From Isurus oxyrinchus (lineage: Eukaryota): DNA of 64,000 nucleotides. Below, piece after piece: positions 2,553-58,232 of this stretch; positions within the stretch are counted from its first letter, which is position 1, and every line of letters starts with the position of its first letter. The notes beneath the pieces are model-generated. The model had not been told where the DNA came from. It searched no databases and was given only the letters and a program-made list of their open reading frames with translations. Both the position numbers and the translations under genes were made by a program. The stretch spans positions 7,006,001-7,070,000 of the forward strand of contig JANJGN010000034.1 of NCBI GenBank assembly GCA_026770705.1. Reading direction: 5' to 3'.

Positions 2553-2553
2553 A

Positions 2554-3805: not shown

Positions 3806-6800
3806 GTAAGTACAAGAATGTTACAGAAACTCGACTTTCATGTAAGATAAATAAGTTGTCCTAAAAATTCATACCTGGCACAATTGGCCCAATATCCTGT
3901 CAAGTATCTTGCCTGATGTCGAAGATAGAGTTATTTCCCTTTTTTTCACGTCCCTCTGTGACATCCCTCCTCCCCATCTGTGTAACGTTCCACAGCTCAT
4001 AATTCCTTTTTGATCCATGTATTTTTCTTCCTTAGTTTCCTATTCAGTACTTTCCCATTCCCCACCTCGACACGTTTAAGACATTCCCTGAAAACTGTGC
4101 CTCAGAGTGATCAGCCTTGATACGTTTCATAACATCTCTCAACCTGTTCGTTGTGATTCTTTACTATTTGTTCCATATCAATGTATGTTTCTGCCTTCGC
4201 CGTCGTTGTCTGTTTAGTAAAAGTTTATTAATCTCTTCAGCTAAATTTGAAAATGGCTCATATCGCATGAAGGCCCCCAGGAGACTTTGGAGTCGAATGA
4301 ACACGAGCCAGGATGTGAACCCTTCGAAAAGCACACCTTTTAAGAGAACCTGGAAGGCTGATTAAACGCATACCAGATGGGCTTAAATACTCATGTTGTT
4401 TCTCTCCGCATTCCAGAGCTAGGCACCTGCCAAGATACCATAAAGGATTTAGGTGAGCCAGTCACTTTTGATGCCTGCCAAATTTCCCGACCGTTTGCTT
4501 TACTCTTAAATCAAGCAAAGCTCCAAGTGTTTCCAAAGCACAACGGAGAAAGAACGATCCTGGAGCATTAATGCGTGTTTTTTTTAATAAATGGTGAACT
4601 TTGAAACAATGACAGATTTGTTCTGTATGGGCAGCTGAACTGTCAGTCATAGTGTTTTCTTGCAAATCTCGGTCAGAAGCTTGGCAAGTGAATTTATGGA
4701 TTGTTCGTTGTTCAGAATGATTCACGTATATCATATCATGTATAAAGCATCGCCTGCGTTGGAGCACCAGCTGTTGGCAGTCAATTCACAGACTGATGTA
4801 GGTTCATGTGTGTATTCAGATGCATGACTACAATGGAATTGAATATTTTTGGTGGGTCTTCCCTCTCTACGACATCGAACATTTTGCCTGGCTACCCAAA
4901 ATGGAAATTCATCGTATAGAGCTTGGTTACAGTAATTGGTTTTACTCATATGGAACCGAATCAGCTTTCGCCATCATATATCGCCAACTTTAATTGTTCT
5001 TGGCTCCAAGGTTAAAAAAAAGACCTAGACCTTTTTCGCGGAAAGTAAGATTTTAAAAAAAGAACTGTTACATGCCCTTAGGAATGTAGCTTCATTTATG
5101 TTATCTCCATGCTCCATGGTGTGCATTTCCCCCCGAAGCGCCACTGCGAGGTAAAGAGGAAAACTTCACTATTCATTCCTCTTTGAGCGATAGGATCGGT
5201 AGCAAGTTGCCAGCTAGCAGCGAATAAATGACTGTTGTCAACTTTCCATGAGCTGTTCTATACAAATTTCACGGTGTTCCACGTTCTCAAGGAGATTTAT
5301 GTTTGCCCTGCACTGTCGGCCTCATGCATTATAGCTTGATTTTCAGTGATAACCTTTCCGGAGTAGGTCATGCATTTGTTCATTTTGTTAATTATTCTTG
5401 ATTTGTTTCACAGATAAAATAAAAAAAGGTAAGTGGAAATATGCTCTAGCACGTGCCCATCTAAATGGATGAAAAGAAGGATGAGGAAAGATGGATTTGC
5501 AGTGATTACACATTGCAATTTAACGTAATTTTTAAATTTTCATTATTATATCTAAATCCCTCTGTGGCCTCGCCCTTCCAAAAATGCCATGAGAATCCTC
5601 TGGCCTTACAACTGGCTGCAAGTTCTGTGTTCACACCACGCTGGTTTGTTTCCGATCGCGCTATTCCTTCATCATACCAATGGCATTTTATGACTTCTGC
5701 AATATGTCCGAAGGCTCCAAAGCACGTTTGCTAAACTTTGGGCCTCAAACTATCCTTCCTCCTTTAATAATCACATATTTCCTGGGCGGTTTCCAAATTC
5801 CACCCCTCGTCCTCACCCCGGAGTCTGGCCAATAAGTAAAGTTTTGTTCAAAATATGGTGAAAAACATTGAGGATCCTTACGCCCTGTGGCACTTCGGTT
5901 ATCGGGAAGGCCTGCGAGGAACCTTAGAAATACTGAGCATCCGATACTCTGGCAAACATGTCCTCAGAACAAGCAGGGGTATACATGGCATCTTAAACAA
6001 CTCAATGACTCTTCTGGCGAACGATGTCTCCAGCAGGAACAAACCACAATCGTTTTAATTTTCTGCCATTATACCATGGTGTTGTTCCCTATAGACATGC
6101 GTGGAAGTTCATGTGCAACGGTTTGTCCATCCTAAAATTTTGACCTAACGGGCATTTTTCTTTCCGAGCCCCTCTACCATGTCATTAGGTGTCCAGCGAA
6201 TGGTGGAGGGAGCATTGTTGTGTTGTATCGAAACTATCACTTGAAATATGCTTGCACTGCATTTGGTCAATTGAAAAAGCGAGCATTCAAAGGCCCCAAC
6301 ACCAAAACTGACAGGAAACACATGTTTTGTTATTTGTCACTGATTACCACCTTACTTTATGGGGCTGAATTATTGAAAACGTACAGGAGGCACCTGAAGG
6401 GTGTTGGGTCATACCGTTAACACTGCCTGCAAAAGAAATTGCACATTAAGTGTGAGGGTAGACAGGCGAACACTAGTGCCCCCTAACAGGCAGTCAACAT
6501 AAGCTTTGGGTCTATATTCATGTGCGATCAGCTTTGGCGAGTTGGTACATCAATCGGCTGTCAGGTATCAGGCTCACAATGCAAGTATTGTTCTCGAAGA
6601 TTAGTAAGGACAGACGCACACGAGGAGGGCAGAGGACGCTCTTAAGGGATGTGCTAAAAAGCAACATGAAGAAAATGAATTATTCACATCAACACCTCGG
6701 TGGACACCCTTTCTGGATTAAGCGAAACAACACCAGGCCCTAAAGGAAGGACCCCAACAATTTGAGTCCGAATAACTACAATGTGCAAAAAGAGTGACCA

Positions 6801-9800
6801 AAGGAAAACAGCATGACCCGAATTAATGATACAAGACCTGACATCCATCAAGGCAACAAATGCCTTGGGTGCATGAAGTCTGCAGGCTTCGAATCTGACT
6901 CTTAATCCATCTCTCAAGGAAGACAATCATCCTCCCTAGTGAGGCGCAGCCAGTAATAAACGGATCTGCAAGCAATTAACAACATGTCCCGATGTGGCTT
7001 CATGTTGCATCAGTTAATTTGGTCGAAACTGTTTCCGTGGAAACAATTTTGCTGCTATTCCTAATAAAGTCGCAAAATACATGCAACTTGTCCTTTCCTG
7101 TCAAAAGTCTACTTTCAATCTCTACCAGCAAGTTTCTGCCGCCAAATCTGAGGGAACAGTGCTCACAGGATGACGAATTGAGTGTTCTACAGTACAGTTA
7201 ACCATGTGGGAGCAAACCATGTTTCCCGAAGAGAAGAGAAACATTTGTAACATAAACAAAGAACACAGCTTGTCATAGAATGGTTACAGCAAAGAAAGAG
7301 GCCATCCAGCTCTTCGCGTCAGAAGCGTATCTCTGGGTCAGTATCTCGGCTGTGCCCATGCTACAGACCTTCACCTGCAGCGCATGCAACTTGCTTGCTA
7401 TTCAAAGAATTACCCAGCTTCCTATTAAAAGCTACGATTGTTCCTTCGCTGAGCTTATTCTTAGGCATTGCATTTCGGAACCTAATGATGTGCTGCACAT
7501 TTATTTTTCCCCATGTCCTCTTTGGTTTTCTGTCAGTTAACGTTAGATTAACATCTTCCGGTTCTTGCCCATTCCTCATGAGAACAATATATATCTGTCT
7601 AACATGTCCAGGCCACATCGTGAATTTGAAAAGCCCCATGAAATCTTATTTCAATCATATTGTATTTATGTACAACCACTCTAAATTCTCAATTCATTCC
7701 ACCTGGAAGAAACAATCATCTCTCGAAACATGCCCATGAATACAAACTCTAGCCCCTCTAACGCCTTCACATCTACCTAAACTAAGATGTCCAAAATATG
7801 ATACAAGTCCCTATTCGAGGTCGAACTAGCGGTTAAACAGTTTTACTATGACTTGTTTTCTTTGCTGCCTATTCATCTATTTATAAAGCCGAGGATTTCA
7901 TCTGGCTTAGTGACAGCGTTTTCAATCTGCCCTGCATCTTGCAACCATTTGTGCTCTTATACTCCCAAAGCCACATAAGCAGCTACAATCCCCTCAGGAA
8001 TACTATCACAAGTTGTTCATTACCTCTTCCTAGCAAAATGTATCACTTCATGCCCCTCTCCACTTATTTCAAATGCAATAGTTCCTCTCATTCCACCAGT
8101 CCACCTGCGTCCATGAGATGTATTTCACGATCTTCTTCGCAATTCATAGACCTGTAAAATCTGAAAACTTTGAAATTTTGCCCTGGACACTCAGCTCTAG
8201 GTCCCTGATGCATACCATGTGAATTGATTGGAAGGGGGAAACTGCGCAATTTTGTTGACAATTAAGTGTGGATTATCCATTTTATGAATTACAGAGCAAA
8301 GCAATTGTCAACAAGCTGTAAAAGACCTAGGTGAGCAAAATATTCCCGGTGTTGCTTTAGAATGCATGGCTTATTTTTTGAACCATTAAGCAAACACTTT
8401 TATTTCTGTTAAAGAGTGAAGTTATCAATTCAGGCACCCGTTGTTTAGCGATAGGCCCACATTTGCTTCCGTTGATTTCAATAAAAGAAAATACTGGGCT
8501 AAAATCAAAACAGGCCGACCATCTGATAGTGAGCAGGATGAATTTCCGATGCTCCATGCATCATGATTATTGGTGATTTTTGTCACAACTCACTGAATCC
8601 TGCACGCTAACAGAATGATGACTTTTTTTTTAACTTATCAATTCGGCACCAAGTTGGCAAAGTGTTCTAACCAATAACGAAACTCCTCACACACGTGAAA
8701 AGTGTTGTATAATCCTACAATTTTTGTTTTTTTTATCATATAATCCCGAACAGAACAAAAACTGACCGCAAAAGAAAAAGGTACCTCATCTGACGTATTT
8801 TCTTCAAGATGCCAGAGATTGACAATGGCTGTTTGCTTCTTTACATGATTTGTTTTGTTTTCGTTTGGATGTTTTACGTTTTTTATTTAACAAAGCAGAT
8901 TCCTAGAATGTACCCGAAGGGTTGGCTCAGAGGAATCCTTTATGTGTGCTCCATAGTTTTGAGATAGGAGGGCATATTTTCCGATGCTGTATCACACAAA
9001 GTTGTAAGACAATAAATAACATGTGAACGAATGAACTGAATAAGGAATTCACTTAATGCTCCTTAAACAAGGTAGTGGCAACAACGAAGTACTCGCTAGC
9101 ACAGTGAAGTTAGAAATAAAACGTATGCGGTGGGTAAGAATGACAGGTTTGCTGATAGTGTTTGTGACGCCGTTGTGAAGTCACAACTTTCAACCAGAAG
9201 CTGCGCATTCAGGTCTCACTTCAGGACTTGATGGCTGTTGAATCTGAGTTCGTAAGGTGGCTGGCTGTTTTGGGCAGCAACTTGCAAAACCTTCCAATGT
9301 GCATGGCGGCTGGTGCTAAGAACGGGAGAGATGCTGGCAAGCCAGAAAGCAGAAGGCAACGTCAAATGACTGTCGTACTTTGCCAAGCATAATCAAGACC
9401 AACTCGAATGCAAATCCTTGACCACCAACACCCTCTGAATGTAGGTTACCTGGAAAAGCAGGAATGAAATAATGTATTTGGTAAGTTGCTCTGGTGGGGG
9501 TTAGGCTTATGCATGGAAAATTCTTTGGACGGACATATATTTTCCGCTAATTTATATGGTTTGGACTACCCTCTCGGTACTGAATTCATTAGATTCAAAT
9601 CCCTTTTTGAGATGAAAATCAGTCCAAATTAGTAAGGAAAAATGACAGAATGCCGGCTATACTTGAGCGTGTGACATGCTTAACCAGGGAGAAAAACCGT
9701 GTATCTACTTAAATACTGTAAATGAACAATCGTTCACGGGAAGAACTTGGCAAAGTCCCGCAATAAAAGAAAATCCACAAAAGGATTTGGTTTCACGGTT

Positions 9801-12800
9801 GTGAATGTTAGTTTGCAAACAGAAGCACGGTGCATGTTACTAATTGAGACTTACAGCGCCAGTAAAGATGGAATTATGCGAAGTCTTATTTTTTAAGAAT
9901 GCATGATATGCAAGTAAGATATACTAAAAACATGCCATGCAATATTGGATGACTGTCTTGGGGAGATTCAATGCCATCCCTCTGTATGTTATTACCCAAC
10001 CTGTACTCAAGTAAGGTGACCGATGCCAGCCCCACGCTTATTGCTACTGCAATCCCAGCACTCTGCTTTTTGTTAAAATGGAGTATGAAATGGCGGCCCA
10101 AATTAGATCTCATATTTTTATGAATTTGATACAAGGATCAGCTGAGGGAAATATTCTGCCATTATTTATGGGTAGGTTAAGTTGGCGCTTCAGCAAAAAG
10201 TGGGCGGAAGTACATATGATAATATGAGATGCAGTATGTGCAGTATGGAGCACGTGGAAGGACATAATCCACTTTGTCGAATATCTTGAACAGTACTGTA
10301 AGCTCTGTATCGTAAGTCGGGAGGATGGGGAGGAGGAAATTGAAATAATGATGAAACTCTCACATCTCACTATTCTAGAGATTCTAACGTGCCAAGAGTC
10401 TTTAAAGGATTCAGGTGTGAAATATATTTGTTATCTGTGTAAAATAACCGCTGCACGAAATATTCCTGCAATCCCTAGCCCAGAGGTAGAATACAGAAAT
10501 GCCGATCAGTAATTCTAAATGTACAGATATAAACTTTGCCTGCATTATATACTTACCCAGAATAGAAAGAGACCAACCCTCCACCTTCCCAGTTACTGCT
10601 CAATGAAAGTCACTCTCCATCTCTCTCTCTCTTATTAGCTGCGTTTCAGAAATATTTTCACACAACCTTGCAAGTGCTTGTTCTGCCCAATAAGTTGTTG
10701 CTCCCCGGCAACTCCCTCCAGCCCACCCTATGACATGTCTATGAATAACCATAAATCTGTAGTTTTTTTTTGCTGGTTGTCCTGGATGTGGGAACCTTTT
10801 ATTGTTATTTATTTTCTTAAGAATAATGGTCTCATCCTATTGGGCATCATTATCATAGGGTCCATTAACGTTTTTGCCATGATCAGAAAATTATCAGCTC
10901 CACTCCGCTCTCTATATAACTGAGGCCCGTGGTCTGTCGATTAAATCTTCCCTGTGCTCCCATCACGATTTGTGAATCATTGCAAACAGTGGTGCATTGA
11001 ATTTGAATACAATATCCTAAAGTGGCGCTTATAAAACAACAAACGTTGAGATGATGCACTGAGAGTCGATATATTGGTGAGATAAGTATCATCAGCAGTG
11101 AGATCTCTGTCAATTATTGATCCCGACTAATGCATGGCACTGTTATCTGAGCTGGTTTTCCGGCTACGCATGGAATGGAGGGCCGTTTCGATAGGTTCAG
11201 TTTCACGCTACAGTCCAGGATTATTATTTACCACTATATGTAGCGTGATCTACATTATTGTATTGCTGCGGAGATATGCACACAAGAGTATGCTTGACAT
11301 AGCAACTCGTTAAAAATGTCAATCCACCTACAAACTTGTGTCTTTTCATATAAAACATCAACTGTTTCAAAGATTCCTAAACCTTCCTGTTAACGTCATG
11401 GTTTGACAGAAAAAAAGCTGGAAGGCAAAGTAAAAGGTAGGCAGTTTAAGGGTTCGCTGTTTTAAAAAGACAGAAATCAACGTGTTAGGAACATAGCTAT
11501 GCGTCTTTTGTTTCATGATTAACTTTTCTCATATAGCATTTAGCATTATTAACGGGAAGAACGGCTGAATTTGGTAATTGGCTATATGTGGAGAAAAAGT
11601 TTCAGCTTGAGGTCAAAGCCAAAATTGAGAGCGAGTAAGGTAGGAGTTTAACATTAATCCAAACTCACACTCAGGAGGAAAGTATTGAACCAGGAAACAA
11701 CAAGAATTTGGAATGCACTGCTGCATGATCCTTTGTTTTACGGAATTTCACAGCATTTTTTTACTGCCAAGGACAGTTATCACACGAGATCCCACAAATG
11801 TTCAATCAACCTGATTATCACGGATTAAGTATTGTGTCATCCCCAAGAAAATTTTAATGTCAACTCCAGATTAATGTCCGCCGTGCATTGTTAAGCAAGT
11901 TTACCCCGTGCTTGCAGTCTGGTTTAAAGACTGTTCCTTCCACAAAATAACGATGCCTTCCTTTGAGAACTTGTTCATGCTTTGGGTAATGACTTTGGAA
12001 GGATACATGTAGATGTCTAAATATCCAGACTGTGTTCCCTCAGGTTGTTTGCAGTCATTTCAGGGGCCATGTGTGATTGAAATTCCTCGGCGCACTTTAC
12101 TGTCAGCCAACGAGCTGAATAGTGTGCGAGCTTTAAGGAATGCTATCCAGCAAACACTGTGCAGTTCATGCACTAAGTATGAAATTATGTTGATCATTCT
12201 CAACAGAATACTAAAGCGGAGTCCATCAAATGAGTATATAGAACCTATTTAAATAACATCTGCACGCACAAAAACATAGTGCCTACTTAGCAAAGGCGCT
12301 ACGGATTACACCGAAACATTTCTAGATTAAAACGAAGTTTAAGTTCTCCAGAAAAGAAAATTCATGAATGAAACCATGCCAATGTCCCTTATAGAAAGCA
12401 GAAGTTCGTCACCAATAAAAAGCAGTTAGTGGAAGAGCTTCAAGTAATGCAAACCACATTCGTCTATTCAACCTCAGTCTCTAACAGCAGTGTAGGTTCG
12501 AGACACGATTGTTAATAGGATTACCGGGCCAGTTTGATTGCTGTCGGGATATTAAAATTATCGCGCTGTTACTTCACATTACCAATGGCATTTTATTGCT
12601 TCTGCAATATGTCCCAAGGTCCCAAAGCATGTTTGCTAAACTTTTCACCTAAAAATCTCCTTCCACCTTGAACATTTACATATTTCCTGGGCGGTCTCCA
12701 GAGTCTACCGCTCGTCCTCACCCCGGAGTCTGTCCACTAATTAAAGTTTCGTTCGAAACATAGTTAAATGCAGTGAGGTGCCTTTTGCCCTGTGGCACTT

Positions 12801-15800
12801 CGTAAACCAAGAAGGCCGCTTAGGAACCTCACAAATACTCAGCAGACGATGCTCTGGCTTACATGTCCTCAGAACAAAAAGGGGAATACATGACATCTTA
12901 AATGCTTCAGTGGCTCTTCTGGAGAACAAAGGCTGCTGCAGGACCAAGCCTCCAAACGTATCAGTTTTCTGCAAATAGACCAAGGTATCGTTCTCTAAAG
13001 ACACGCGGGGAAGTTGGAATGCAACTGTTTGCCCATCCTAAAATCTTTCTTTCCTTCCACGCACATCACCCATGCCATCAGGTGCCCAGCGAATACTGGA
13101 GGAAGCATTGTTGTGTTATATGCAATCTATCACTTGAAGTATGCTTGTACAGCTTTTGGTCAATTGGGAAAGTGAGCATTGGAAGGTTGCAACACCAAAA
13201 CTGACAGGAAGCTCATGATATGTTATTAGTCTCTGATTCCCACCTTACTGTACGGGACTGCAACATGGGCAACATGCAGGAGGCACCTGAAAGCCATTGG
13301 GTCATACCGTTAACACTGGCTGGGAAAGAAATTGCATATTATGTGGGAGGGCAGACAGGTGAACACTAGTGCCCCCTTACAAGCAGGCAGCATAAGCTTT
13401 GGATTTATGCTCATGTGTGATCAGCTTCGGTGAGATGGCACATAGTTCGGCTGTCAGATATCAGACTCGGAAAGCAGGTATTGTTCTCGAAGATTAGCCA
13501 GGACAGACGCACCAGAGGAGGGAGAGGAAATTCTTCAGTGATGTGCTGAAAAGCAAGATGACAAAAATTAATTATTCTTATCGACACCTCGTTGAAAACT
13601 GTTTATTGATGAAGTCAAACGGCAGCAGCCCCTATAGGAATAATAGAAGCAATTCGAGTCTGAACAAGTACAAAATGATCAGGAAAGAAAAGATCGGACA
13701 AAGGAAAACAGCATGACCCGAATTAATGATACACGACCTGACATCCAACAACGTTTGAAATGCCATGGGTGCATGAAGTCTACAGGTACCGAATCTGCCT
13801 CATCAGCTAACTCAAGTTCATGGAGGACAATCGTCATCGCTAGTGAGGCAGAGCCAGTAATAACAGTACCTGCAAGTAAATAATCACATGTTCCGATGTG
13901 GCCTCATGTTGCATCAGCTCCAGTTTTGTCAAAACTGTTTCCGTGGAAACAATTTTGCTGTTTTCCTTTTAAAGTCGCTATATACATGCAAATTGTCCTC
14001 TCCTGCCAACAGGCAAATTTAAATCTCTACCAGCAAAGTTTCTGCCGCCAAATCTGAGGGAACAGTTGCTCGCAGGATTACAACGTTAGGGTTCTTACAG
14101 TACAGTTAACCATAAGGGAGAACACCATGATTCCGGAAGAGAAAATAAACATTTGTAGCATAAACAAAGAACACAGCTTGTTATAGATTGGTTACAGAAA
14201 AGAATGAGGTGACCGGCTCTTCGTGTCAGAGGCGTATCTCTGGGTCATTATCTCGGCTGTTCCCATGCTGCAGACCTTCACATACAGCGCATGCAACTTG
14301 TTTGCTATTCAAAGAATTACCCAGCTCCCTATTAAAATCCATGATTGTCCCTTCACCGAGCTCATTCTTAGGCATTGCATTTCGGAACATAATGATGCAC
14401 TGCAGATTTAATTTTCCCCATCTTCCCTTTGGTTTTCTGTCAGTTAGCATTAAATTAATGTCTTCCGGTTCTTGACCATTCCAGATGGAACAGTCTATAC
14501 TTGCCTAACATGTCCAGGCCACGTCGTGAATGTGAAAAGCCCCATCAAATCATCTTTCACTCATACTGTATCTATAGAAACCGCTCTGAATTCTCAATTC
14601 TTTCCAGCTGGAAGAAACAATCATATCTGGAAACATTTCCATGAATACAAGCTCTACCCTCTCTAACGCCTTCACTTCTCCTTAAACTATGTTGTCCAAA
14701 ATATGCCACAAGTCCCTAGTTGAAGTCGAACTAGCGATTAAACAGTTTTACCATATCTTCCTTTCATTGATGCATTTTCTTTTATTTCTGAAGCCGAAGA
14801 TTTCACCTGGCTTAGTGACTGCGTTTTCAATCTGCCCTGCATCTTGCAACCATTTGAGCTCTTATACTCCCAAAGCCCCATAAGCGGCTTCAATCCCCTT
14901 TAGAATGCTACCACAAGTTGCTCATTGCCTCTTCCTACAAAAATACATCAATTCATGCCTCTCTCCACTCATTTCAGCCGCAATAGTTCCTCCCATTCCA
15001 CCAGTCCATCTGCATCCGTTTGAATTATTTCACCATCTTCTTAGCAATTCATAGACCTGTAAAATCTGAAAACTTTGAAATTTTGCCCTGGACACTCAGC
15101 TCTAGGTCCATGTAGATAGATTGGAAGGGGGAAACTGCGCAATTTTGTTGACAATTAAGTGTGGATTATACATTTTATGAATTACAGAGCAAAGCAATTG
15201 TCAACAAGCTGTAAAAGACCTAGGTGAGCAAAATATTCCCGGTGTTGCTTTAGATTACATGCCTTGTTTTTTTTGAACCATTAAGCAAATACTTTTACTT
15301 TCGTTAAAGAGTGAAGTCATCAATTCAGGCACCCGTTGTTTAGCGATAGGCTCACATTCTCTTCTGTTGATTTCAATAACATAAAATACTGAGCAGAAAG
15401 CAAAACAGGCCAACCATCCGAAAGTGGGTAGGATGAATTTCCGATGCTCCATGCATCACGATTATTGCTGCTTTTTGTTACAACTCTTACTGAATCCTGC
15501 ATGCTAACGGGCTCATGACTTTTTTTTTAAAACTTATCGATTTGGCACCAAGTTGGCAAAGTGTTCTAACCAATAACGAAACTCCTCTTACTCGTGAAAA
15601 GTGTTGTTCAATCCTATAATTTTTGGTTTGTTTGTCATGTAATCCCGAACAGAAGAAAAACTGACTGCAAAAGAAGAAGGTACCTCATCTGACGTATTTT
15701 TTTGAAAAAGCCAGATATTGACAATGGTTGATTGCTTCTTTACAAGATTTGTTTTGTTTTCGTTTGAATGTTTTATGCTTTTTTTTTAACAAAGCAGATT

Positions 15801-17536: not shown

Positions 17537-17568
<32 letters not shown>

Positions 17569-39688: not shown

Positions 39689-39724
<36 letters not shown>

Positions 39725-45700: not shown

Positions 45701-48700
45701 GTGTATCTACGTAAATAATGTAACTGAACAATTGTTAACAGGAAGAACTTGGCAAAGTCCCGCAATAAAAGAAAATCTGCAAAAGCATTTGGTTTCACGG
45801 TTGTGCAGGTTAATTTGCAAACAGAACGACCGTGCATGTTACTAATTGAGATTTTCAGCGCCGTTAAAGATGGAATTATGCGATGTCTTATTTTTAAGCA
45901 TATATAAAATGCAAGTAAAATATACTAAAGCATGCCATGCAACTATTGGATGGCCGCCTCGAGGAGATTCAATGTGATGTCTCTGTATGTTATTGCACGA
46001 TCTGTACTCAAGTAAGGTGACCAATGCCAGCCTCGTGCTTATTGCTATTGCAATCCCAGCACTCTGCTCTTCGTTAAAATGGAGTACGAAAGGGCGGCCC
46101 AAATTAGACCTCGTATTTTTATGAATATGATACAAGGTTCAGATGAGTTAAATATTTTACTGTTATTTATGGGCAGGTTTAGTCGGTGCTTCAGGAGGAT
46201 GTGAGCGGAAGTACATATGGTAATAAGAAATGCAGTATGTCGAAGTATGGAGCGTTTGGAAGGACATAATGCACTTTGTCGAATACCTTGACCAGTACTG
46301 TAAATTCTGCATAGTAAGTCGTGAGGGTCGGGGGTGGGGGGGGGGGGGGGCGGGGAGGGTGGGGAGAGGGGGAAACGTGCTGAAATTAAAATAATGATGA
46401 AACTCTCACATCTCACTATTCTAGAGATTCTAACGTGCCAAGAGTCTTTAAAGGATTCAGGTGGGAAATGTATTTGCTTTTGTGTGAAATACCCGCTGCC
46501 CAAAATATTCCTGCAATCCCTAGCCCACACGTGGAATACAGAAATGCCGATCAGTAATTTAAAATGTACAGATGTAAACTTTGCCTGCATCATGTAGTTA
46601 TCTAGTACAGGAACAGCCCAACCCTCCACTTGCCTGTTATTGCTATATCTCGCTCCTTCTCTCTCTATCTTTCTGATTAGCTGCGTTCCAGAAATCTTTT
46701 CACAGAACCTTGCAAATGCTTGTCCTGCACAATAAGTTGTTGCTCCCCGCCAACGGCCTCCCCACCCCCCACCCTATGATTTGTCTATGAGAAACCATAC
46801 ATCTGTGTTTCTTTGTTGCTCCTCGTCCTAGACGTGGGAACCATTTATTGTTACTTAATTTCTTAAGAATGAAGGTCTCATCATATTGGGCGTCATTATC
46901 ATAGGGTCCATTAACCTTTTTGCGTGATCAGAAAAATCTCATCTCCCGTCCGCTGTCTATATGACAGCCGTCCCGGTACTGTCGATTAAATCTTCCCTGT
47001 GTTCCCAACTCGATTTGTGAATCATTGCAAAGTGTAGTGCCTCGAATTTGAATACAATGTCCTAACGTGGCGCATATAAAACAACAAATGTTGAGATGCT
47101 GCACTGAGTGTCGATGTCTTGGTGAGATACAAATCTTCAGCAGTGAATTCTCTGTCAATTATTGATCCCGACTAATGCGTGGCACTGTTAGCTGAGCTGG
47201 TTGTCTGGCTGGGCGTGGAATGGATGGCCGTTGCGATAGGGTCAGTTTCACGCTAAAGCCAAGGATCACTATTTACCACTATATGTAGCACGATCTACAT
47301 TATTGATTTGTTGTGGAGATATGCATGCAACAGTAGGCATAGCAACACGTTAAAAATGTCAATCAACCTGCAAACTTGTGCCTTTTCAAAAACATCATCA
47401 ACTGTTTCAATGATTCCACAATTGTCCCGTTAACGTTATGCCTTGACAGAAACAAAGCTGGAAGACAAAGAAAAAGGTTGGCAGCTTAATGGTTCGCTGT
47501 TTTAAAAAGACAGAAATTAACGTGTTAGGAACAGATCTATGCATCTTTTGTTTCATCATTAACTTCGCTGAATTAGCATTTACCATTATTAACTGGAAGA
47601 TTGGTTGAATTTGGTAATGGGCTATATGTGCAGAAAATCTTTCAGCTTGAGGTCACAGCCAAAATTGAGAGCAAGTAAGGTAGGAGTTTAACATTAATCC
47701 AACCTCCCACTCAGGAGGAAAGTATTGATCCCGAAAAGGACAAGAATTTGGAATGCACTGCTGCATGATCCTTTATTATACGGAATTTTGCATGATTTTT
47801 TACGGCCAAGGACATTTATCCACCGAGATCCAACGAATGTTCAATCGACCTGATTATCACGGAGTAAATATCGTGTCAACCCAGGAAAATTTTACTTCAG
47901 CATTGTCAACTCCAGACTAATGGCCCACGTACATTGTTGAGCAAGTTTACCTCGTGCTTGCAGTCTGGTTTAAAGACTGTTACTACCACAACTAACGATG
48001 CCTTCCCTTGAGGACTTGTTCATGCTTTGGGTCATGACGTCGGAATGATACATGTAGATCCATAATATCCAGACTGTTTTCCCTCAGGTGGTTTGCAGTC
48101 GTTTCAGGGGCCATGTGTGATTGAAATCTCTCGACGCATTCTCTGTCAGCCAATGAGCTGAATGGAGTGCGAGCATTAAGGAATGCTGTGTAGCAAACGC
48201 TGTACATTTCATGCACTAAATATCAAATACTAAAGAGCAATCTGTCAATTCAGCATATAGAACCTATTTAAATAACATCTACACCCACAAAAACATGGTG
48301 CCTAGTTAAACAAAGGCGCTACGAATTACACCAAAACATTTCTAGGTTAACAAAAAGTTTAAGTTCTCCGGCAAAGAAAATTCCCGAATGAAAACATGCC
48401 AATGCCTCTTGCAAAAAGCCGAAGTTCCTCACCAATAAAATACAGTTAGTGGAAGAGTGTCAATTAATGCCTAACACATTCATCTATTCAACGTCAGTCT
48501 CTAACAGCAGTGCAGGTTCCAAACACGATTGTTAAGAAGATTACCAGGCCAGTTTGATTGCTGTCGGGGAATGTGGGGATACTAAATCCATCACGCTGTT
48601 TATTGACCTTACGAATGGCGTTTTATGGCTTCTGAAAATTGTCCCAAGGCCCCAAAGCATGTTTGCTAAACGTTGCGCCTAAAATTCTGCTTCTGCCTTT

Positions 48701-51700
48701 AACAATCACATATGTCCTGGATGATTTCTACAGTCCATCCATCGTCCTCACCCCGGAGTTTGTCCAATAATTAAAGTTTTGTTCGAAACATGGTGAAATG
48801 CAGTGAGGTTCCTTACGCTCTGTGGCACTTCTGTTACCGAGAAGGCATGTTAGGACCTAAGAAATACTCAGCAGGTGATGCTCTGGCTTACATGCCCTCA
48901 GAACAAAAAATGGAATGCATGGCATCTTAAACAACTCAATGGCTCTTATGGCGACTGGAGGCTGCTGCAGGACGAAGCCTACAATCATTTCAGTTTTCTG
49001 CCATTGGACCAAGGTGCCGTTTTCTAAAGACACGCAGGGAAGTTTGTATGCAGCGGCTTGCCCATCCTAAAATCTTTCTTTCTTTCCGAGCACATCTACC
49101 ATACATTCAGGTGTCCAGCAAATGCTTGAGTAGCATTGTTGGGTTTTATGCAAGCTATGCCTTGAAGTATGCTTATACAGCTTTTGGTCAATTGAGAAAG
49201 TGAGCATTCAAAGGTCGCAACACCAAAACTGACAGGAAGCTTATGATCTGTTATTTGTCTCTGATTCCCACCTTACTGTATGGGGCTGCAACATGGACAA
49301 CGTACAGGAGGCACCTGAATGCCCATGGGTCATACCCTTAACACTGGCTGTGAAACAAATAGCATATTATGTGGGAGGGCAGACAGGTGCCCTCTTACAA
49401 ACTGGCAACATACGCTTTGGGTCTATGATAATGTGCAATCAGCTTCGATGAGTTGGCACACAGTTCGGCTGTCAGATATCAGGCTCGGAAAGCAGGTATT
49501 GTTCGCCAAGATTAGCCAGGAAAGACGCACCAGAGGAGCGCAGAGGAAGTTCTTCAGTGATGTGCTGAAAGGCAAGTTGACGAAAATATATTATTCTTCT
49601 CGACACCTCATTGAACACCGCTTATGGATTAAGCCAAACGGCAGCAGGCCCTGTAGGAAAGACCCCAGCACTTTAACTCCGAGCAACTACAAAATGATTC
49701 GGAAAAACAAGAGGGGCCAAAGGAAAACAGCATGACCCGAATTAATAATACACGACCTGACATCCAACGAGGCAACAAATGCCTTGGGTGCATGAAGTCT
49801 GCAGGTCCTGAATCTGCCTCATCATCCATCAAAGGCTCTTGGAAGACAATCGTCCTCGCTAGTGAGGCGTAGCCAGTAATAACAGTATCTGCAAGCAATT
49901 AATCACGTGTCCCAATGAAGCCTCATGTTGCATCAGCTCCAGTTTTGTCGAGACTGTTTCAGCGGAAACAATTTTGATGTTTTAACGGATTAAGTCTCTA
50001 TATACATGCAAATTGTCCTTTTCTGTCAGCTGTCTACTTTTAATCTCTGCTAGCAAGTTTCTGCTGCCAAATCTGAGGAAAAAGTTGCTCGCAGGACGAC
50101 TACGTGGGGATGCTTTCAGTACTGTAAACCATTTGGGAGAAAACCATGCTTCATGAAGAGAAGCTAAACATTTGTAATATAATCAAAGAATACAGCTTGT
50201 CATAGATCGGTTACAGCACAGAAAGAGGCCATCAGGCCATTTGCATCGGAGGCGAGTCTTTTGATTAATACTGTGGTTGCTCGCAAGCTCCCGACCTTCA
50301 CCTGCAGTGCTGAAAATTGCTTGCTTATCAAAGAATTACCCAGTTCCCTATTAAAAGTGAGGATTTTCCCTTCGCTGAGATCATCCTTACTCATTGCATT
50401 TCAGAACCTAATGATGGAAAGCACATTTATTTTTTTCCCACGTCCACTTAGATTTTATTTCAGTTGAAGTTAAAACAATGTCTTCTGGTTCTTGACGATT
50501 CCAGTGGGGAACAGTCTATACCTGCCTAACATTTCCAGGCCACATCGTGAATTTGAAAAACCCCATCAAATCTCATTTCAGTCATATTTTATCTATGTAC
50601 AACTGCTCTAAATTCTCCAATCTTTCCACCTAGAAGAAATAATTGTCTCTGGAAACATTCCCATGAATACATTCTCTAACCTCTCTAGCGCCTTCACTTC
50701 TCGCTAAACAATGGTATCCAAAATATTCCCTAGTTGAACTCGAACTACAAGTTAAAGTGGTTACCATAACTTCCTGTCACTGCTGCCTATTCATCGATTT
50801 ATAGAGCCGAGGATTTCATCTGGCTCAGTGAAAGCGTTTTCAATCTGCTCTGCATCTTGCAACCATTTGCCTCTTATACTCGCAAAGAACCATCAGCAGC
50901 TTCAATCCCCTTTGGGGTGCTACCACAAATTCTTCATTACCTCTTCCTACCAAAATGTATCACTTGATGCCTCTCTCTATTAATTTCAACTGCAATAGTT
51001 CCTCTCATCTCACCAGTCCATCTGCGTCCGTTTGATGTATTTCACCATCTTCCTGGCTATTCATACATGGAAAACCTGAAAACTTTGAAGTTTTGCCCTG
51101 GACACTCAGGTCTAGGTCCGTGATGCATATCAGTTAGATAGGAAGGGGGAAACTGCGTATTGTTGTTGACACTTCAGTGTGGATCAGCCATTTTATGAAT
51201 TACAGAGCTCAGCATCTGTCAACAAACTGGAAAAGACCTAGGTGAGTTGAAAATTCCCGGTGTCGCTTTACATTACATGCCTTGTTATTTTGAACTGTTA
51301 AGCAAATAATTTTATGTTCGTTAAAAAGTTGTCATCAATTCTGGCACCCGTTGTTTGGCGATATGCCCACATTTGCTAATGTTAATTTCAATAAAAAAAA
51401 TTCTTGGCAAAAAGCAAAACTGGCCAACCATCCGACAGTGGGCAGGATGAATTTTCGATGCTCCCTGCGTCATGATTAATGGTGCTTTTTGTCACAACTC
51501 TTACTGAATCCGGCACACTAACGGAATAATGACTTTTTTTAACTTTATCAATTTGGCACCAAGTTGGCAAAGTGTTCTAACCAATAACGAAAGTCCTCCC
51601 ACTCGTAAAAAATGTTGTTTAATCCTACAATTTCTGGTTTGCTTATCATGTAATCCCGAACAGAAGAAACACTGACTGCAAAAGAAAAAGGTACCTGATC

Positions 51701-54700
51701 TAACATTTTTTTCTTCAAAAAGCCAGAGATTGACAAAGGCTGATTGCTTCTTTACATGATTTGTTTTGTTTTCATATGAATGTTTTATGTTTTTTTTAAC
51801 TAAGCAGATTTTTAGAGTGTAACCTAAGTGTTGCAGCAGAAGAATCCTATACGTTTGTTCCATGGTTTTGATTTACTAGGGCATATTTTCCGATGCTGTG
51901 TCACACAAGTTGGAAGCTAGTAAATAACCTGTAAACTAATGTATTGAATAAGGAATTCACTTAATGCTCCTTAAACAAGGTCGTGGTAAAAACAAAGTAC
52001 TCGCTAGCACAGTGAAGTTAGAAATAAAACCTATGTGCTCATTAACAATGACAGGTTTGCTGATAGAGTTTATGAAGGAGTTCTTGTGACGCTGTTGTGG
52101 AGTCACAACTTCTGGCCAGAAGCTCCGTGTTCAAGTCTCACTTCAGGACTTGCTGGCTGCTGAATCTGTTTTTGTAAGGTGGCGGGCTGTATTGGTTACC
52201 AACTTGCAAAACCTTCAAATGCGCCTGGCAGCAGGTGTTAGGAACGGGGGAGATGCTGGCCATTGAGAATGCAAAAGAAACATGGAATGACTGTCGTACT
52301 TTACCAAGCATAAGCATGGCCAAAACGAAAGGAAATCGATGATCACCAACACACTCTGAATGCAACTACCTTGAAAAGCAGGATTAAATAATGTATTAGT
52401 TAAGTTGCTCTAGTGGATGATAGGCTGAGGCATGGGGCACTTCATTGGAGGGACAGATATTTTGCTCTAAATTATATGGGCCGGATTACCCTCTCTACCG
52501 AACACCATAGAAGTAAATGTTATTTTGAAATGTAACTCACTCCAAATTGGAAAGGAAAAATAACAGAGCGCCCTCTATAGTTGATCGGTGACGTGCCTGA
52601 CCAGGGTGAAGCACCGTGCATCTACTTAAATAATATAATTGAACAATAATTAACAGGAAGAAATTGGCAAAGTCCTGCACAAAAAGAAAATCTGCAAAGG
52701 CATTTGGTTTCACGGTTGTGTAAGTTAAATTGCAAACACAAGCACAGTGCATGTTACTAATTGAGACCTACAGCGCCGGTAAAGATGGAATTCTGCGATG
52801 TCTTATTTTTAAGCATGTATAATATGCAAGTAAGCTATCATAAAGCATGCCATGCAACTATTGTTGACCGTCTCGGGGAGATTCAATGTGATGTCTCTGT
52901 ATGTTTTTGCCCAACCTGTACTCAACTAATGTGACCCATGCCAGCCTCGCGATTATTGCTACTGCAACCCCAGCGCTCTGTAATGTTTATTATGTGCTAT
53001 TCATTAAAATGCAGTACGAAATGGTGGCCCAAATTAGACCTCGTATTTTTATGAATATGATACAAGGATCAGCTGAGGTAAATATTCTGCCGTTATTCAT
53101 GTTTAGTTTAAGTCGGCACTTCAGAAGGAAGTGAGCGGAAGTACATATGGGTAATATGAGATGGAGTATGTCGAAGCATGGAGCACATGGAAGGACATAA
53201 TCCACTTTGTCGAATACCTTGACCTGTAGTGCAAATTCTGCATAGTAAGTCCGGAGGGTGGGAGGGAGGGAGAGGAGGAAACGTGCTGAAATTGAAATAA
53301 TGGTAAACTCTCACATCTCACTATTCTAGAGATTCTAACGTGCAAAGAGTCTTTAAAGGATTCAGGTGGGAAATATATTTGTTATTTGTGTAAAATACCC
53401 GCTGCACAAAATAGTCCTGCAATTGCTAGCCCACACATAGAAAACAGATATGTCGATCTGTATTTTTAAATATACAGAGGTACACTTTACCTGCATCATA
53501 TACTTATCCAGCACAGAAAAAGGCCAGCCCTCCACCTTCCCTGTAATTGCATCTCTCTCCCTCTCTCTCTCTCTCTGATTGCCTGCGTTCCAGAAGTATT
53601 TTCCAATAACCTTGCACAACAATTCTTTCTGCTGGCTTACTCCCCGCAAACCCCCTCAGGCCCCACCCGATGATTTCTCTATCAGTAAGCATAAATCTGT
53701 GTTTCTTTGTTGCTAGTCGTCCTGGACGTGGGAACCTTTTATTGTTATTTAATTTCTTAACAAGGCTGGTCATTATCAAAGATTCCATCAACCTTCTTGC
53801 GGTGATCAGAAAGATCTCAGCTCCCCTTCGCTGTCTGTATAACTGACGCCCCTGGTACTTTCGATTTAATCTTCCCTGGGCTCCCAACACGATTTGTGAA
53901 TCATTGCAAAGCGTGGTGCGTCGAATTTGAATACAATATCCTAAAGTGGTGCATATTGAACAACAAATGTTGAGATGCTCCACTGAGTGTCGACGTATTG
54001 GTTAGATACACATCTTCAGCAGTGAGTTCTCCGTCAATCATTGATCCGGACTAATGTGTGGCACTGTTAGATGAGCTGGTTGTCTGGCTGGGCGTGGAAT
54101 GGATGGCCGTTGCAATAGGGTCAATTTCACGCTACAGTCCAGGATCACTATTTACCACTATATGTAGCATGATCTACATTATTGTATTGTTGCGGAGGTA
54201 TGCACGCAGCAGTATGCTTGACATAGCAACACGTTAAAAATGACAATCCACTTGCAAATTTGTGCCATTTCATATAAATCATCAACTGTTTCAATGATTC
54301 CACAGTCTTCCTGTTAACGTCATGCCTTGACAGAAAAAAAGTTGGAAGACAAAGAAAAAGGTAGGCAGTTTAAGGATTCGCTGTTTTAAAAAGACAGAAA
54401 TTAACGTGTTAGGAACATAACTATGCGTCTTTTTTTCATGATTAATTGCTCTGAAATAGCATTTAGCATTATTAACCGGAAGATCGGCTGAATTTGATAA
54501 TGGGCTATAAGTGGAGAAAAAGTTTCAGCTTGAGTTCACAGCCGAAATTGGGCCGAGTAAATTAGGAGTTTAACATTAATTCAACCTCCCACTCAGGAGG
54601 AAAATATTGGACCAGAAAACAACCAGCATTAGGAATTTGCTGCTGCATGATCCTATGTTATACGGAATTTCACTCCATTTTTTTGAGGCCAAGCACAGCG

Positions 54701-57700
54701 AGATCCCACGAATGTTCAATGGACCTGATTTTCATGGAGTAACTATCGTGTCGTCCCCAAGAAAATATTACTTCAGCGTGGTCAACTCCAGATTAATGCC
54801 CCCCGTGCATTGTTAAGCAAGTTTACCTCGTGCTTGCAGTCTGGTTTAAAGACTGTTACTTCCGCAAAATAACGATACTTTCTCTTGAGCACTTGTTCGT
54901 GCTTTGGGTCATGACTTCGGAAGGATACATGTTGATCTGTAAATGATCAGACGGTCTTACCGCTGGTCGTTTGCAATCGTTTCAGGGGCCATTTGTGATT
55001 GAAATTTCTCGGCGCACTTCTCTGTCAGCCAACGAGCTGAATGGCGTGCGAGCTTTAAGGAATGCTGTGTAGCAAACACTGTACAATTCATATACTAATT
55101 AACAAATTAAGCTGATCATTCTTAACAGAATACTAAAGCGGAGTCTGTCAAATCGGCATAACGAACCTATTTAAGTGACATCTACACGCACAGAGACATA
55201 GTGCCTAGTTAAACAACGACGCTACAAATTACACAGAAACATTTCTAGGTTAACACGAAGTTTAAGTTCTTCAGCAAAGAAAATTCACGAATGAAACCAA
55301 TGTCTCTTGTAAAAAGCAGAAGTTCGTCACCAATAAAATGTAGTTAGTGAAAGAGTTTCAAATAATGCAAAATGAATTCGTCTATTCAATCTCTGTCTCT
55401 AAAAACATTGTAGGTTCCAGACACGGTTGTTAAGAGGATTACCGGGGCAGTTTCATTGCTGTAGGGGAACATAGGGATACTAAATGGAGCTCTTCTGTAA
55501 TCTGGACAAGGAAACGTAACTGATGACCTTGACAATGCTATGATCCTTATAAACCAGTTGTTTTCTTTCTATCTTAGAATGCAATGACTTTCTGCAGAAG
55601 TGCAGTGAGTATTCCACGACCCAGCAGCCACCAAGGTCTGAACTTCCCGATTCGTTATTAAGCCTGTACTGCGTAAAGAACTTCTCCGTAGATAAAACGT
55701 GTGCCTTGGGGGACAAGAATATTTTCGAATAAGGGCATTAAAGCACAACCCGAAGACATGAGGAGAAAATGTCTGAAAGGAAATTGCCGTGTTACTTTCT
55801 TCCCTGAAGCTGCACCGAATATTATATCCTCGCAGCTTCCAGCTTTTTAGTTGTGAATCTGTAGACAGAACTTCCGCTTTCTGGTCAGAAGGTTGCGAAT
55901 TCAAGTCCAGAGATAGAAGTTGAGCGCAGGCGCAAATGCTGACACGTCCGTGCAGCCCTCAGGCAGCAATGTATTGCAGGAAGTGGCGTGTCGCCGTTTA
56001 GTATATAAAACGAGGCCAGGTCTGCACTCAAACTTGGACGTAAATGACCCAAAGCCAAATTTGAAAGAAACGAAGGGAAGTTTTCCACCGATGTGCTGTT
56101 GAATAATTACCCATTAATTAAACCTCACATAACAAGGTAGTTTTGGTGGTCTTGGGGTCCCTGGTGAGTCGGGCGGAACAAGTATCTGCGCTGAAACAGT
56201 TCATTCAGAGAGAACATTATATCACCAGCTTTAGGTTGGCAGATGGATCAGACGGACAATTGACAGATGACGTCTTACGCAGAAAATTGCGATCGCATTA
56301 TTTTTGTGGGAAGAACGAGGCGAGGCAATGCAAGACAAAGTGTTAAAATCTAAATGGATTTCAGGGTGATTATCCCTGTTTTTGAATTTGCCCAAATTGC
56401 TCAGGGTGACAAGGCAGGTTGAATGGGCGGTTAAAAAAACAAAAACGGGCCTTAGCTTAATAAAGAGGGTCATATAGCACGAAGACATGCAGTTTACAAT
56501 AAATGTATGAAATACTAGGCGGGCCTCAATTTGAGAATTGTTTCAAATTCTGGACAACATTCTCGAGGAAAATGTGTCGGCATTATAGAGTGTGCACAAG
56601 TGTTTTTTTTAAATGATTCCAGGGATGAGGAGCTGCACTTACGTGGTTGATTTGGACAGGTTTTCTTCACCTTGTTGAACAGAACATTTATAAACTATTT
56701 GATAAAGGTGAACATAATCATTAGCATCCAGGGTAGAGTAAACACGAGAGAGTTGGGCCGTTGGCAGGAACTGTCGAAAATCAGTGGAGGCCGAGTTAAG
56801 GTAATTGACAACATAAACATTGGTGCCATGAGGGATACATTTGCTTTTCCAGCGAGTGCTTAGCATTTGGATCATACTGCTAACAGTGTCGTGGAGGAAT
56901 GTTCTATAGACGTTTTCAGCGGAGTATTAAATAATTATTTCAAGAAGAGAGTTACTTCAGAGGAGTGTTACTTAGAATTGCGGGGCAGTGGGATGAAATG
57001 AAATTAATTGTGAGATTCGGCATTGGTTCGATGTGTCGGAAGGTCTCTCTCTCTCTATCTGTCTGGCTCTCCCTCTCTCCCTCTCTCTCTCTTTATGTCT
57101 CTCTCTCTCCCCCTCTCTATTTCACTCTCTATATATGTTTTAAAGCTGATTAGATAGATGGTTAGACGGACGGATGGATGGATGGTTAGACGGATGGATG
57201 GACGAATGATTGGACGGACGGGCTTACGGATGGACGGACGGTTTAATGGATGGATATTTAGGTAGACAGACAGATAAGGAAAATAGATAGATAGCAATTG
57301 GACCTGACAGTACAGGACAATTCCTTAACAGTTCCGAATGACACAAGGCATGGAGGTGCGGCAAACAAACAGGTTGATAACAACCGACTGCACCAAGACA
57401 TAAGTAGTCGAGCAGCATAAGCATCAAGTGTTGGATCGAATTTAATGCACATAACGCTGAAGTGATACATTTTTGTAAAACCTATAGAGGAGGGCAAATA
57501 CCCTTATTGAAACGATTCTTATGTGTGCGACTGAACAGATAAGGAGCAGAATTTCTTTAAGTTATTTTCAAATATTACAAGGGTAACGAGCACATTATTT
57601 GGATTCTTGGGCTTAATAAGTGGAGGCATTCAGCACAAAAGTAGAAAATTGTGCATAACCTTTTGAAACTCTGGTTATGCCGTACTTAATGTTGTTGCAT

Positions 57701-58188: not shown

Positions 58189-58232
<44 letters not shown>

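Follow-up and report, generated by a model that had tools for sequence, protein, structure and literature searches.

Does a tandem array of multi-kilobase units in Isurus oxyrinchus lengthen a protein by exactly six heptads with each unit gained, and is it still doing so? We analysed a 64,000-nucleotide stretch of DNA (the window) in which the original prediction had placed a 6.9 kb macrosatellite acting as such a protein-length module. The window probably represents the middle of one large gene. Its coding region here, made of phase-1 micro-exons, would specify a coiled-coil rod rich in K and E that was expanded by block duplication and has Cys at a d (core) position once per 21 residues.

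Seven tandem units make up the array

Self-BLAST and boundary tests delimited a forward-strand array of seven ~6.9 kb units (5655–55486), putatively within one gene. These multi-kilobase units run head to tail, each with the same in-frame exon set: unit 1 (5655–12559, 6905 bp), unit 2 (12560–19366, 6807 bp, with a 135-bp intronic deletion near 17714), unit 3 (19367–26290, 6924 bp), the irregular unit 4 (26291–34762, 8472 bp), unit 5 (34763–41658, 6896 bp), unit 6 (41659–48589, 6931 bp) and unit 7 (48590–55486, 6897 bp). Similarity to the six internal unit starts is 0.80–0.83 for the 200 bp that follow 5655 and 0.41–0.47 for the 200 bp that precede it. Similarly, the 200 bp before 55487 match internal unit ends at 0.78–0.84, and the 200 bp after it only at 0.44–0.47. 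Both array ends therefore fall at the same unit position, as had been proposed.

Exons occupy 126 of ~6900 nt per unit (1.8%), in agreement with the ~98% non-exonic content claimed earlier. Transposon debris, also claimed for the regular units, was not recovered: no Pfam family was found in 26 ORF or stop-free stretches tested inside and outside the units, and unit DNA is low-copy at ≥88% likeness (summed depth 115–1026; millions for a Penelope-like piece). Judged by its motifs, the first ~1.3 kb may have an old LINE-like look. A Penelope-like retroelement, with an RT end, HTH_animal and a GIY-YIG-like end, lies on the reverse strand at 842–2592, and the best named relatives of its ORF are in rays and a bamboo shark, which makes it a marker of the host clade. 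Direct Pfam scans of this ORF were blank. PF26215 is present in 9 of 13 homologs, one of which also has PF00078, and the matching atlas clusters carry PF26215 (73–98%) and PF01541 (13–18%). Via homologs and clusters, the element shows the Penelope-like order of RT, then HTH_animal, then GIY-YIG endonuclease.

Each unit carries four phase-1 micro-exons

Four phase-1 micro-exon slots of 36, 27, 36 and 27 nt (A to D) are present on the forward strand in every unit. In units 1 to 7, exon A (36 nt, phase 1-1) lies at 8295–8330, 15188–15223, 22008–22043, 28919–28954, 37350–37385, 44291–44326 and 51206–51241; exon B (27 nt) at 8754–8780, 15653–15679, 22468–22494, 29382–29408, 37809–37835, 44752–44778 and 51664–51690; exon C (36 nt) at 10379–10414, 17293–17328, 24083–24118, 32622–32657 (C4′, the second C slot of unit 4), 39453–39488, 46425–46460 and 53330–53365; and exon D (27 nt) at 11410–11436, 18211–18237, 25122–25148, 33647–33673, 40499–40525, 47450–47476 and 54334–54360. 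AG..GT borders are intact in 28/28 exons, all of which end in G and are open in phase 1, without stops or indels. The predicted 126 nt of exons per unit is borne out.

Scanning the six regular units returned 38 gap-free, open AG..GT segments of 3n length conserved in all six, of which only exons A–D passed a splice-score filter whose thresholds were chosen with the exons already known. Exon divergence is 0.089 compared with 0.147 for the unit background (P = 0.003, 20000 draws), with pN of 0.081 and pS of 0.118. All eight splice dinucleotides are invariant in the six units (background AG 161/403, GT 121/367; joint about 3e-4). Exon C varies at 4 of 36 columns; exons A (0.13) and D (0.12) diverge at near the intron rate, and only B and C are clearly conserved. 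Purifying selection on the array exons is thus modest. Two runs guessed to be RNA contained no exon joints among the 15 listed of 99 joint rows.

Alternatively, the locus might be decaying, a duplicated relic of a region that once coded and in which splicing of the micro-exons has ceased. The near-neutral rates at which exons A and D diverge would fit such a relic, as would the weak acceptors of A, B and D (−2.3 to +0.9 on a simple matrix), the weakened donor of D6 (score 0.2 versus 4.5 in the other six D exons) and the lack of a protein homolog. We nevertheless consider decay very unlikely: at ~16% divergence, all 28 exons are still free of stops and indels and retain their splice dinucleotides, exon C and the exons overall are conserved, and copies of the flank exons are conserved too.

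Paired exons resemble each other (70% nucleotide identity for B and D, 53% for A and C), whereas their 150-nt intron flanks gave no alignment above shuffles (A/C P = 0.25 and 0.24; B/D P = 0.03 and 0.46, uncorrected among 90 tests). This upholds the suggestion of an older 21-residue duplication beneath the 42-residue one. An ancient 36+27 nt exon pair, encoding 21 residues or three heptads, may have multiplied, with only the exons still alike; the similarity is observed, and duplication is our reading of it.

A larger duplication may enclose the array

Exons of the array family also occur outside it: the single-copy flanks contain them, and so do the two copies of a higher-order duplication, again on the forward strand. 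To the left are exons of 15 nt (3791–3805, phase 1), 36 nt (4417–4452, A/C family) and 15 nt (5414–5428). To the right are a possible, uncertain 27-nt exon with a weak donor (55578–55604), a 39-nt A/C-family exon identified by homology (57961–57999), a 27-nt B/D-like exon (58626–58652) and copies of the first two left-hand exons, of 15 nt (63280–63294) and 36 nt (63908–63943). The left higher-order copy (120–4509), broken by the Penelope-like element, is 84–85% identical to the right one (61364–64000), which runs off the window. The flank exons in these copies differ at 3 of 51 nt (1/15 and 2/36), compared with ~15% around them. The array thus appears to sit inside a second duplication, both ends of which are seen and whose extent we infer to be ~60 kb; this array-bearing block would have been duplicated at about the same divergence as the units.

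The units are mosaic and mostly old

Unit pairs are 83–88% identical, except for unit 2 and U4a, the part of unit 4 with the U2-like tract (96.4%), and the 3′ part of unit 4 and unit 6 (U4b/U6; 89.7%). These identities do not fit a homogeneous macrosatellite with near-identical units, and the macrosatellite label overstated their homogeneity. Recombination between units was supported: in a PHI-like test on 481 informative sites in six units, 0 of 500 permutations were as low as observed, rejecting a clonal history, and trees differ by segment, making the units mosaics. Most unit splits, at a JC distance of 0.16, go back roughly twice as far as the divergence from a related species (organism B; 0.07–0.08). 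In 16 organism B runs from six studies, 11–14% of the words from positions 3000–12500 were found, and the single run examined has up to 7 contigs per site, indicating several unit copies. Its best long contig is 92.5% like U4a and, with 67 differences, lies nearer to U4a than any window unit except U2 does (at least 93 differences).

With units 83–88% alike, mosaic and present in several copies in a relative, the array is best read as mostly an old intragenic duplication with one irregular copy. A 6.9 kb block with two exon pairs was duplicated in tandem and grew through unequal crossing-over to seven copies, mostly before the split from the related species, and inner crossovers or conversion produced the mosaics. 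We regard as improbable an actively mutating macrosatellite, with exact six-heptad steps, selected register and copy number polymorphic now. Whole-period boundaries and recombination among units agree with it, as does one tract, 1.3% diverged and two units out of register, but nearly all unit pairs are 12–17% apart, older than the organism B split.

Unit 4 carries an extra exon slot

Unit 4 consists of its own 5′ end, a U2-like tract (27070–31487), a 189-N assembly gap (31009–31197), a Penelope-like piece (31496–32223, forward strand; inverted relative to the 842–1506 copy and 88% alike) and the U6-like U4b (32224–34762), which restarts at unit offset ~4350 and holds C and D. Exons A4 and B4 lie in the U2-like tract. 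This 4.4 kb stretch is 98.7% identical to unit 2 (13340–17653), with substitutions at 55/4167 sites, and continues past the gap for 290 bp with 1 mismatch and a microsatellite indel. Because the gap flanks match an 80-nt exon-C stretch of unit 2, we infer a first C exon beneath the gap, giving the order A, B, gap-hidden C slot, inverted retroelement piece, second C and D. With both C exons spliced, the unit would encode 54 residues (A-B-C-C-D; 5 mod 7, off register); the heptad register over the whole array would be unbroken if unit 4 splices one C and shifted by +5 mod 7 if it splices two. The proposal that only whole units were gained, each step adding exactly six heptads, fails at this odd extra slot, and the off-register arrangement left by the sole recent event also argues against an active macrosatellite.

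This structure may reflect a recent exchange between chromosomes two units out of register, with a Penelope-associated junction fusing one unit within its C-intron to a second unit within its pre-C intron and so producing two C slots. It is present in the assembly, where it may stem from a single true chromosome or from two haplotypes that were merged. The second option, an out-of-register merger of haplotypes at the N gap, strikes us as a serious contender, if somewhat short of even: one haplotype would have seven regular units and the other a Penelope-associated deletion from the unit 2 C-intron to a later pre-C intron. Consistent with a join, the window has a single N gap, into which the near-identical tract extends, and the 1.3% divergence of the tract is near the ~1.0% expected from a word share of 0.73 in the best-matching run (an upper bound, as contig holes lower word share). 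However, the sequence becomes U2-like at ~27070, a point 4 kb within a contig and away from the gap. A join would also suit the contigs of one organism A run, which mix letters of the U2 and U4a types and have close to single depth (48.5, 41.8, 34.1 and 42.7 for records 2, 4, 6 and 8, compared with 41.7 for unique record 1), but one letter per site is expected either way because contig building merges near-identical copies, and some shared sites reach depths of 72–102.

In the same organism A run, letters common to U2 and U4a have a median depth of 50.6 versus 37.5 for single contigs (1.35x), a weak figure because its 13 sites range from 34 to 102 and 2/15 sites are without cover. Being below the 2x expected for two fixed copies, it hints at alleles of different length, a hint that the tract itself, with so few differences at two units out of register, also gives. 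The same figure, with the same weakness, would suit an active macrosatellite. It favours neither reading of unit 4, a recent unequal exchange or a haplotype-join artefact. The artefact reading concerns unit 4 only, is compatible with an old intragenic expansion of the rod and would also imply length alleles.

The predicted product is a probable coiled-coil rod

The predicted 294-residue product shows hydrophobicity peaks at periods 3.5 and 7.0, in line with the heptad period claimed for the micro-exons, and one heptad column is almost wholly L/I/V. Cys occupies the d position in 13/14 A/C exons, with Phe in its place in A6; other core positions hold Gly (A5 and A7) or Gln (A1, A2 and A4). Net charge is −19, and there is no N-glycosylation sequon in the 294 residues. 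No homologous protein was found in the protein collections searched, annotated ray and shark proteins included, with profiles sensitive enough to pick up the product and most of its variants at 80% identity; any gene-family assignment is therefore a guess.

Because every exon has phase 1-1, the frame survives any gain, and geometry alone dictates that a homologous crossover would lengthen the rod by 42 residues (about 6 nm). Six heptads per unit are the automatic outcome whenever the alternating 12/9-residue exons in the copied block are even in number, and about half of all blocks of such alternating exons would be a multiple of 21; the figure is therefore no evidence of selection on register. 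Flank Cys-to-Cys spacings, which rest on the exons found and could be altered by missed micro-exons, are 17, 22 or 31, and 26 residues; none is a multiple of seven. Both observations undercut the idea of register keeping as a selected property, and the spacings also speak against an active macrosatellite.

Most likely the rod belongs to a membrane receptor, in which it would oligomerise and serve as a spacer or tail, possibly stapled by disulfides; our guess at its type would be the neck of a C-type lectin or a cytoplasmic tail of the BG/butyrophilin kind. CD23 stalk repeats comprise 21 residues from 63-nt exons, a one-exon repeat whose dimensions our literature search did not find in print. 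The shark module shares the heptad coiled coil of the CD23 neck, but is split over two micro-exons, has Cys in its core and is far longer, with no lectin domain seen in the window. Instead of forming a BG-like tail in the cytoplasm, the rod might be the disulfide-linked, extracellular neck of some type II membrane protein, either a CD23/CD209-like C-type lectin or one of the tetherin/PLVAP kind; this is possible but rather doubtful. Its d-position Cys would suit an oxidising compartment; CD23 (FCER2) is described as having a heptad coiled-coil stalk that oligomerises and spaces its domain from the membrane (PMC6791321; PMC6640697), and tetherin as TM-CC-GPI (PMC10617486). The absence of sequons, the net charge and the lack of a lectin, TM or GPI exon in the window count against a neck, and cytoplasmic BG tails also have conserved Cys and phase-1 micro-exons (PMC5938342).

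Comparison with known length-variable genes

Chicken BG tails are described as encoded by small phase-1 exons, usually of 21 nt but in some cases of 18 or 24, with one heptad per exon, heptads across exon borders and a tail Cys; exon numbers are 13–36 between genes and also haplotype-variable, with unequal crossing-over invoked (PMC5938342; PMC4046983). The shark locus resembles these butyrophilin-family genes in its phase-1 micro-exons encoding coiled-coil heptads with Cys. It differs in that its exons are 15, 27, 36 and 39 nt, never the 21-nt one-heptad size, with three heptads per 36+27 nt pair and a 6.9 kb four-exon block as the unit. No Ig-V or TM exon was seen within the window, and no sequence similarity to BG was shown.

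Multi-exon VNTRs in LPA (KIV-2), NEB and DMBT1 share the multi-kilobase, mostly intronic intragenic unit with the same small in-frame exon set. KIV-2 units are reported to span ~5.6 kb, to include one exon of 160 bp and one of 182 bp, and to be nearly identical, with up to 40 copies per allele; NEB units are reported as >10 kb (PMC11201333). Compared with KIV-2, the shark units are 83–88% alike, their coding share is 1.8% rather than about 6%, their module is a coiled coil rather than a folded domain and their polymorphism is only hinted at. In-frame multi-exon length change being established for LPA, NEB and BG, the locus would be a new case, not a new mechanism.

This putative long coding region, made up of 15–39 nt exons only and not recognisable in the protein collections searched, illustrates a class of exons that annotation can miss. 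A fuller picture, an unannotated receptor gene whose disulfide-stapled rod is nested at 21 residues, 42 residues/6.9 kb and a ~60 kb block that contains entire arrays, with length alleles segregating both by whole units and by a register-breaking exon, seems to us unlikely. If the flanks prove to encode Ig-V/TM, BG-type length-variable heptad tails would be extended to sharks and rays. If length alleles exist, they would provide a natural test of the need of coiled coils for unbroken heptad register: 42-residue steps keep it, while a unit 4 allele with an extra 12 residues would not.

The array is an old mosaic of micro-exon-bearing units

Self-BLAST of the window (41% GC; sole N gap, 189 N at 31009–31197) revealed repeats spaced ~6.9 kb apart, which form seven tandem units starting at 5655, 12560, 19367, 26291, 34763, 41659 and 48590, with the array ending at 55486. 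Six units measure 6807–6931 bp and unit 4 measures 8472 bp. Likeness is sharp at both array edges, confirming that the array starts and ends at the same unit position, which is the outcome expected of any head-to-tail duplication.

All 28 exons seen, in slots of 36, 27, 36 and 27 nt per unit (A, B, C and D), have both splice dinucleotides, AG and GT, and a terminal G, and none contains a stop in phase 1. Across six units, exons differ less in pairwise comparison than the whole unit (mean 0.089 versus 0.147, P = 0.003), with an exon pN of 0.081 and pS of 0.118. This conservation comes from exons C (0.03) and B (0.07), exons A (0.13) and D (0.12) being no more conserved than introns. Among 38 conserved, gap-free open AG..GT segments, the four exons alone pass a splice-score filter with thresholds chosen in hindsight. 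A further exon-like site, near 8899, was dropped because it did not pass the scan for conserved open frames, and no candidate exceeded the threshold when the minus strand of the flanks and of unit 1 was scanned for exons. The D6 donor (47477–47482) is weakened, scoring 0.2 versus 4.5 in the other six D donors; skipping of D6 would remove 9 residues and shift the heptad register.

The exon families extend beyond the array, which the original prediction had not noticed: exons of 15, 36 and 15 nt precede it, and a doubtful 27-nt exon followed by exons of 39, 27, 15 and 36 nt lies after it. The runs listed as sharing words with the window include no RNA run. In two runs guessed to be RNA (X21, and X24, flagged as probably DNA), none of the 15 joint rows listed (of 99) is an exon joint, repeat-element rows being dominant; these rows speak neither for nor against splicing.

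In the predicted 294-residue product of the seven units, hydrophobicity peaks at periods of 3.5 and 7.0 residues, and one of the heptad columns is nearly all aliphatic. Of the 14 A/C exons, 13 place Cys in the second core column; the net charge is −19 and the product contains no N-glycosylation sequon. Its hydrophobic periodicity predicts a coiled coil. Exons A and C are alike, as are B and D, but the corresponding introns do not align, which supports the proposal of an older 21-residue duplication beneath the 42-residue one.

Pairwise unit identity is 83–88%, except for U4b/U6 (the 3′ part of unit 4 against unit 6; 89.7%) and U2/U4a (unit 2 against the front part of unit 4; 96.4%). Such values fall short of the near-identity implied by the label 'macrosatellite'. 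Trees built from four segments of the units conflict with one another, and a PHI-like test on the six regular units, with unit 4 excluded, gave 0.374 against 0.468 ± 0.005, with 0 of 500 permutations as low (481 informative sites). The units are thus recombinant mosaics. Overall, the coding micro-exons form a genuine block with good support, set in a tandem duplication that is old, mosaic and nested.

The best of the long self-matches lie at two-unit offsets (32224–41655 versus 46003–55484, offset 13779 bp; 5654–17280 versus 19366–31008, offset 13712 bp), and U5/U7 and U4b/U6 group in trees, a hint that duplication may have proceeded two units at a time. The stretch at 5655–7000 and its equivalent in every unit are blank in Pfam; judged by motifs, they may be an old LINE reverse-transcriptase remnant.

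Unit 4, as assembled, departs from the six-heptad module

The original prediction held that each unit adds exactly six heptads. As assembled, unit 4 offers A-B-C-C-D and would add 54 residues if both C exons are spliced, which keeps the frame but is 5 mod 7, so the rule fails there. Its front ~780 bp is distinct (120/785 differences from U2). From ~27070 to 31487, only 55 of 4167 sites differ from unit 2; this tract is present on either side of the N gap, whose flanks correspond to an 80-nt stretch of unit 2 containing exon C. An inverted Penelope-like piece (88% to 842–1506) follows, after which unit 4 resumes ~740 bp further back, U6-like and with its own C and D.

Three readings fit this layout. 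Unit 4 may stem from genuine unequal crossing-over, offset by two units, in which a full allele recombined with one carrying an element-associated deletion; it may be an assembly join of a full haplotype and an element-associated-deletion haplotype; or it may be a fixed conversion tract plus an insertion. Under either of the first two, alleles of different length exist. In X1, a run of organism A that may or may not derive from the individual assembled, contigs across the tract blend U2-type and U4a-type letters. Letters common to U2 and U4a have a median depth of 50.6 (13 of 15 sites; range 34–102; two sites uncovered) against a single-contig baseline of 37.5 (18 rows; two U2-like rows excluded). 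The resulting ratio of 1.35 leans against two fixed U2/U4a copies but decides nothing.

Differences between U2 and U4a (27070–31487 versus 13340–17653) are unevenly spread, sparse at 27300–28500 and after 30400 and denser at 28570–30400, suggesting more than one exchange.

Register keeping as a likely by-product of crossover geometry

It had been proposed that unequal crossing-over changes rod length without disturbing frame or heptad register. All exons are phase 1-1, and frame therefore survives any whole-exon change. By geometry, homologous unequal crossover would add one period, that is, 42 residues or about 6.2 nm. Because 12- and 9-residue exons alternate, every block made up of exons in even number comes to a multiple of 21 residues, so a single founding event would keep register about half the time. 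Moreover, the sole non-homologous event in view, in unit 4, brings in an odd exon. Gln and Gly are tolerated at core positions of exon A, and the exons identified in the flanks give Cys spacings of 17, 22 or 31, and 26. On these grounds, register keeping is so far a by-product and not a demonstrated constraint.

Expansion probably predates the split from organism B

In related organism B, 11–14% of the words of 3000–12500 are present (16 runs, six studies), corresponding to about 6–7% divergence. X10, the single B run aligned to the window, gives at most 7 contigs per site, and an 893-nt X10 contig is 92.5% like U4a, to which, among window units, only U2 is closer. Jukes–Cantor (JC) distances are 0.164 between units, 0.067–0.079 to B and 0.013 in the U2/U4a tract. 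Since the units differ more from one another than from B, expansion would mostly predate the split from B if rates are similar, and one event, marked by the U2/U4a tract, is recent.

The array may lie within a larger duplication

The stretch at 120–4509 is 84–85% alike to 61364–64000, a depth equal to that of the units. Both copies carry matching 15- and 36-nt exons (3 of 51 nt differ), and the right copy continues past the window end. As no large exon was found between 55487 and 63280, we infer a ~60 kb intragenic block enclosing the array rather than two genes, and there may be more arrays beyond the window. Summed X1 depth at the five best-covered sites is 15–24× single-contig depth, against 7–8 slots in the window; overlapping contigs are counted twice, so the sum is not a copy number and does no more than hint at additional arrays. 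X1 joints skipping 223, 103 and 175 nt fit no gap of any window unit and leave the sequence in between undefined; they were not counted as extra units.

Known systems and candidate host genes

With profiles that combined the 36-nt exons and intron read-through, no homologous protein was found among 2111 candidates or among a further 148 at E ≤ 10 (proteins of up to 2000 residues). The one match among 1.84 billion representatives was an unrelated hydrophobic repeat protein, apparently aligned to an intron part. In power controls, the representatives profile found the product itself at E 3e-45, and found 9/10 versions with 20% of sites redrawn, 1/10 with 30% and none beyond (E ≤ 0.001); the blank search, with power to about 80% identity, rules out close representatives only. 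A 25-nt stretch of exon C matched nothing in a metagenome scan, an Rfam search of the window gave no matches, and Pfam found no families in 26 ORFs and stop-free stretches of the window. A literature search, with few subscription papers in scope, found neither the locus nor a shark gene of comparable build.

LPA KIV-2 and NEB are the nearest known cases for the genomic build (PMC11201333), and chicken BG tails for phase-1 heptad micro-exons that vary in number (PMC5938342, PMC4046983), although BG exons are 21 nt and those of the array are not. By analogy, the array would work like a KIV-2-type module with BG-type cargo. CD23 (PMC6791321, PMC6640697) and tetherin-type proteins (PMC10617486) offer alternative host types for such a rod. 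The domains that define these families would lie beyond the window. By our judgement, a BG/butyrophilin-like tail is the foremost candidate for the host gene, though less likely than not, with a gene of some other kind close behind, a lectin neck somewhat less likely and a tetherin/PLVAP-like gene improbable.

Transposable elements and simple repeats

A 345-codon open stretch on the minus strand (1338–2372) has 13 homologs at E ≤ 1e-20 (31–65% identity), of which the nine with a species name are from rays and a bamboo shark; it is similar to HTH_animal/GIY-YIG clusters. A cartilaginous fish is accordingly the most probable host. The surrounding element (842–2592) is Penelope-like by its domain order. 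It occurs only in the left copy of the higher-order duplication, and a 100-bp inverted repeat lies at 2555–2657. At 26872 and 28675, unit sequence is joined to 21–27 letters of repeat element in one contig each in X1 and X10, possibly because the element has inserted into units that lie beyond the window, or by chance. Microsatellites (TC, GATG/GACG-type and AT) occupy 57044–57254 and 58189–58228 in the 3′ flank.
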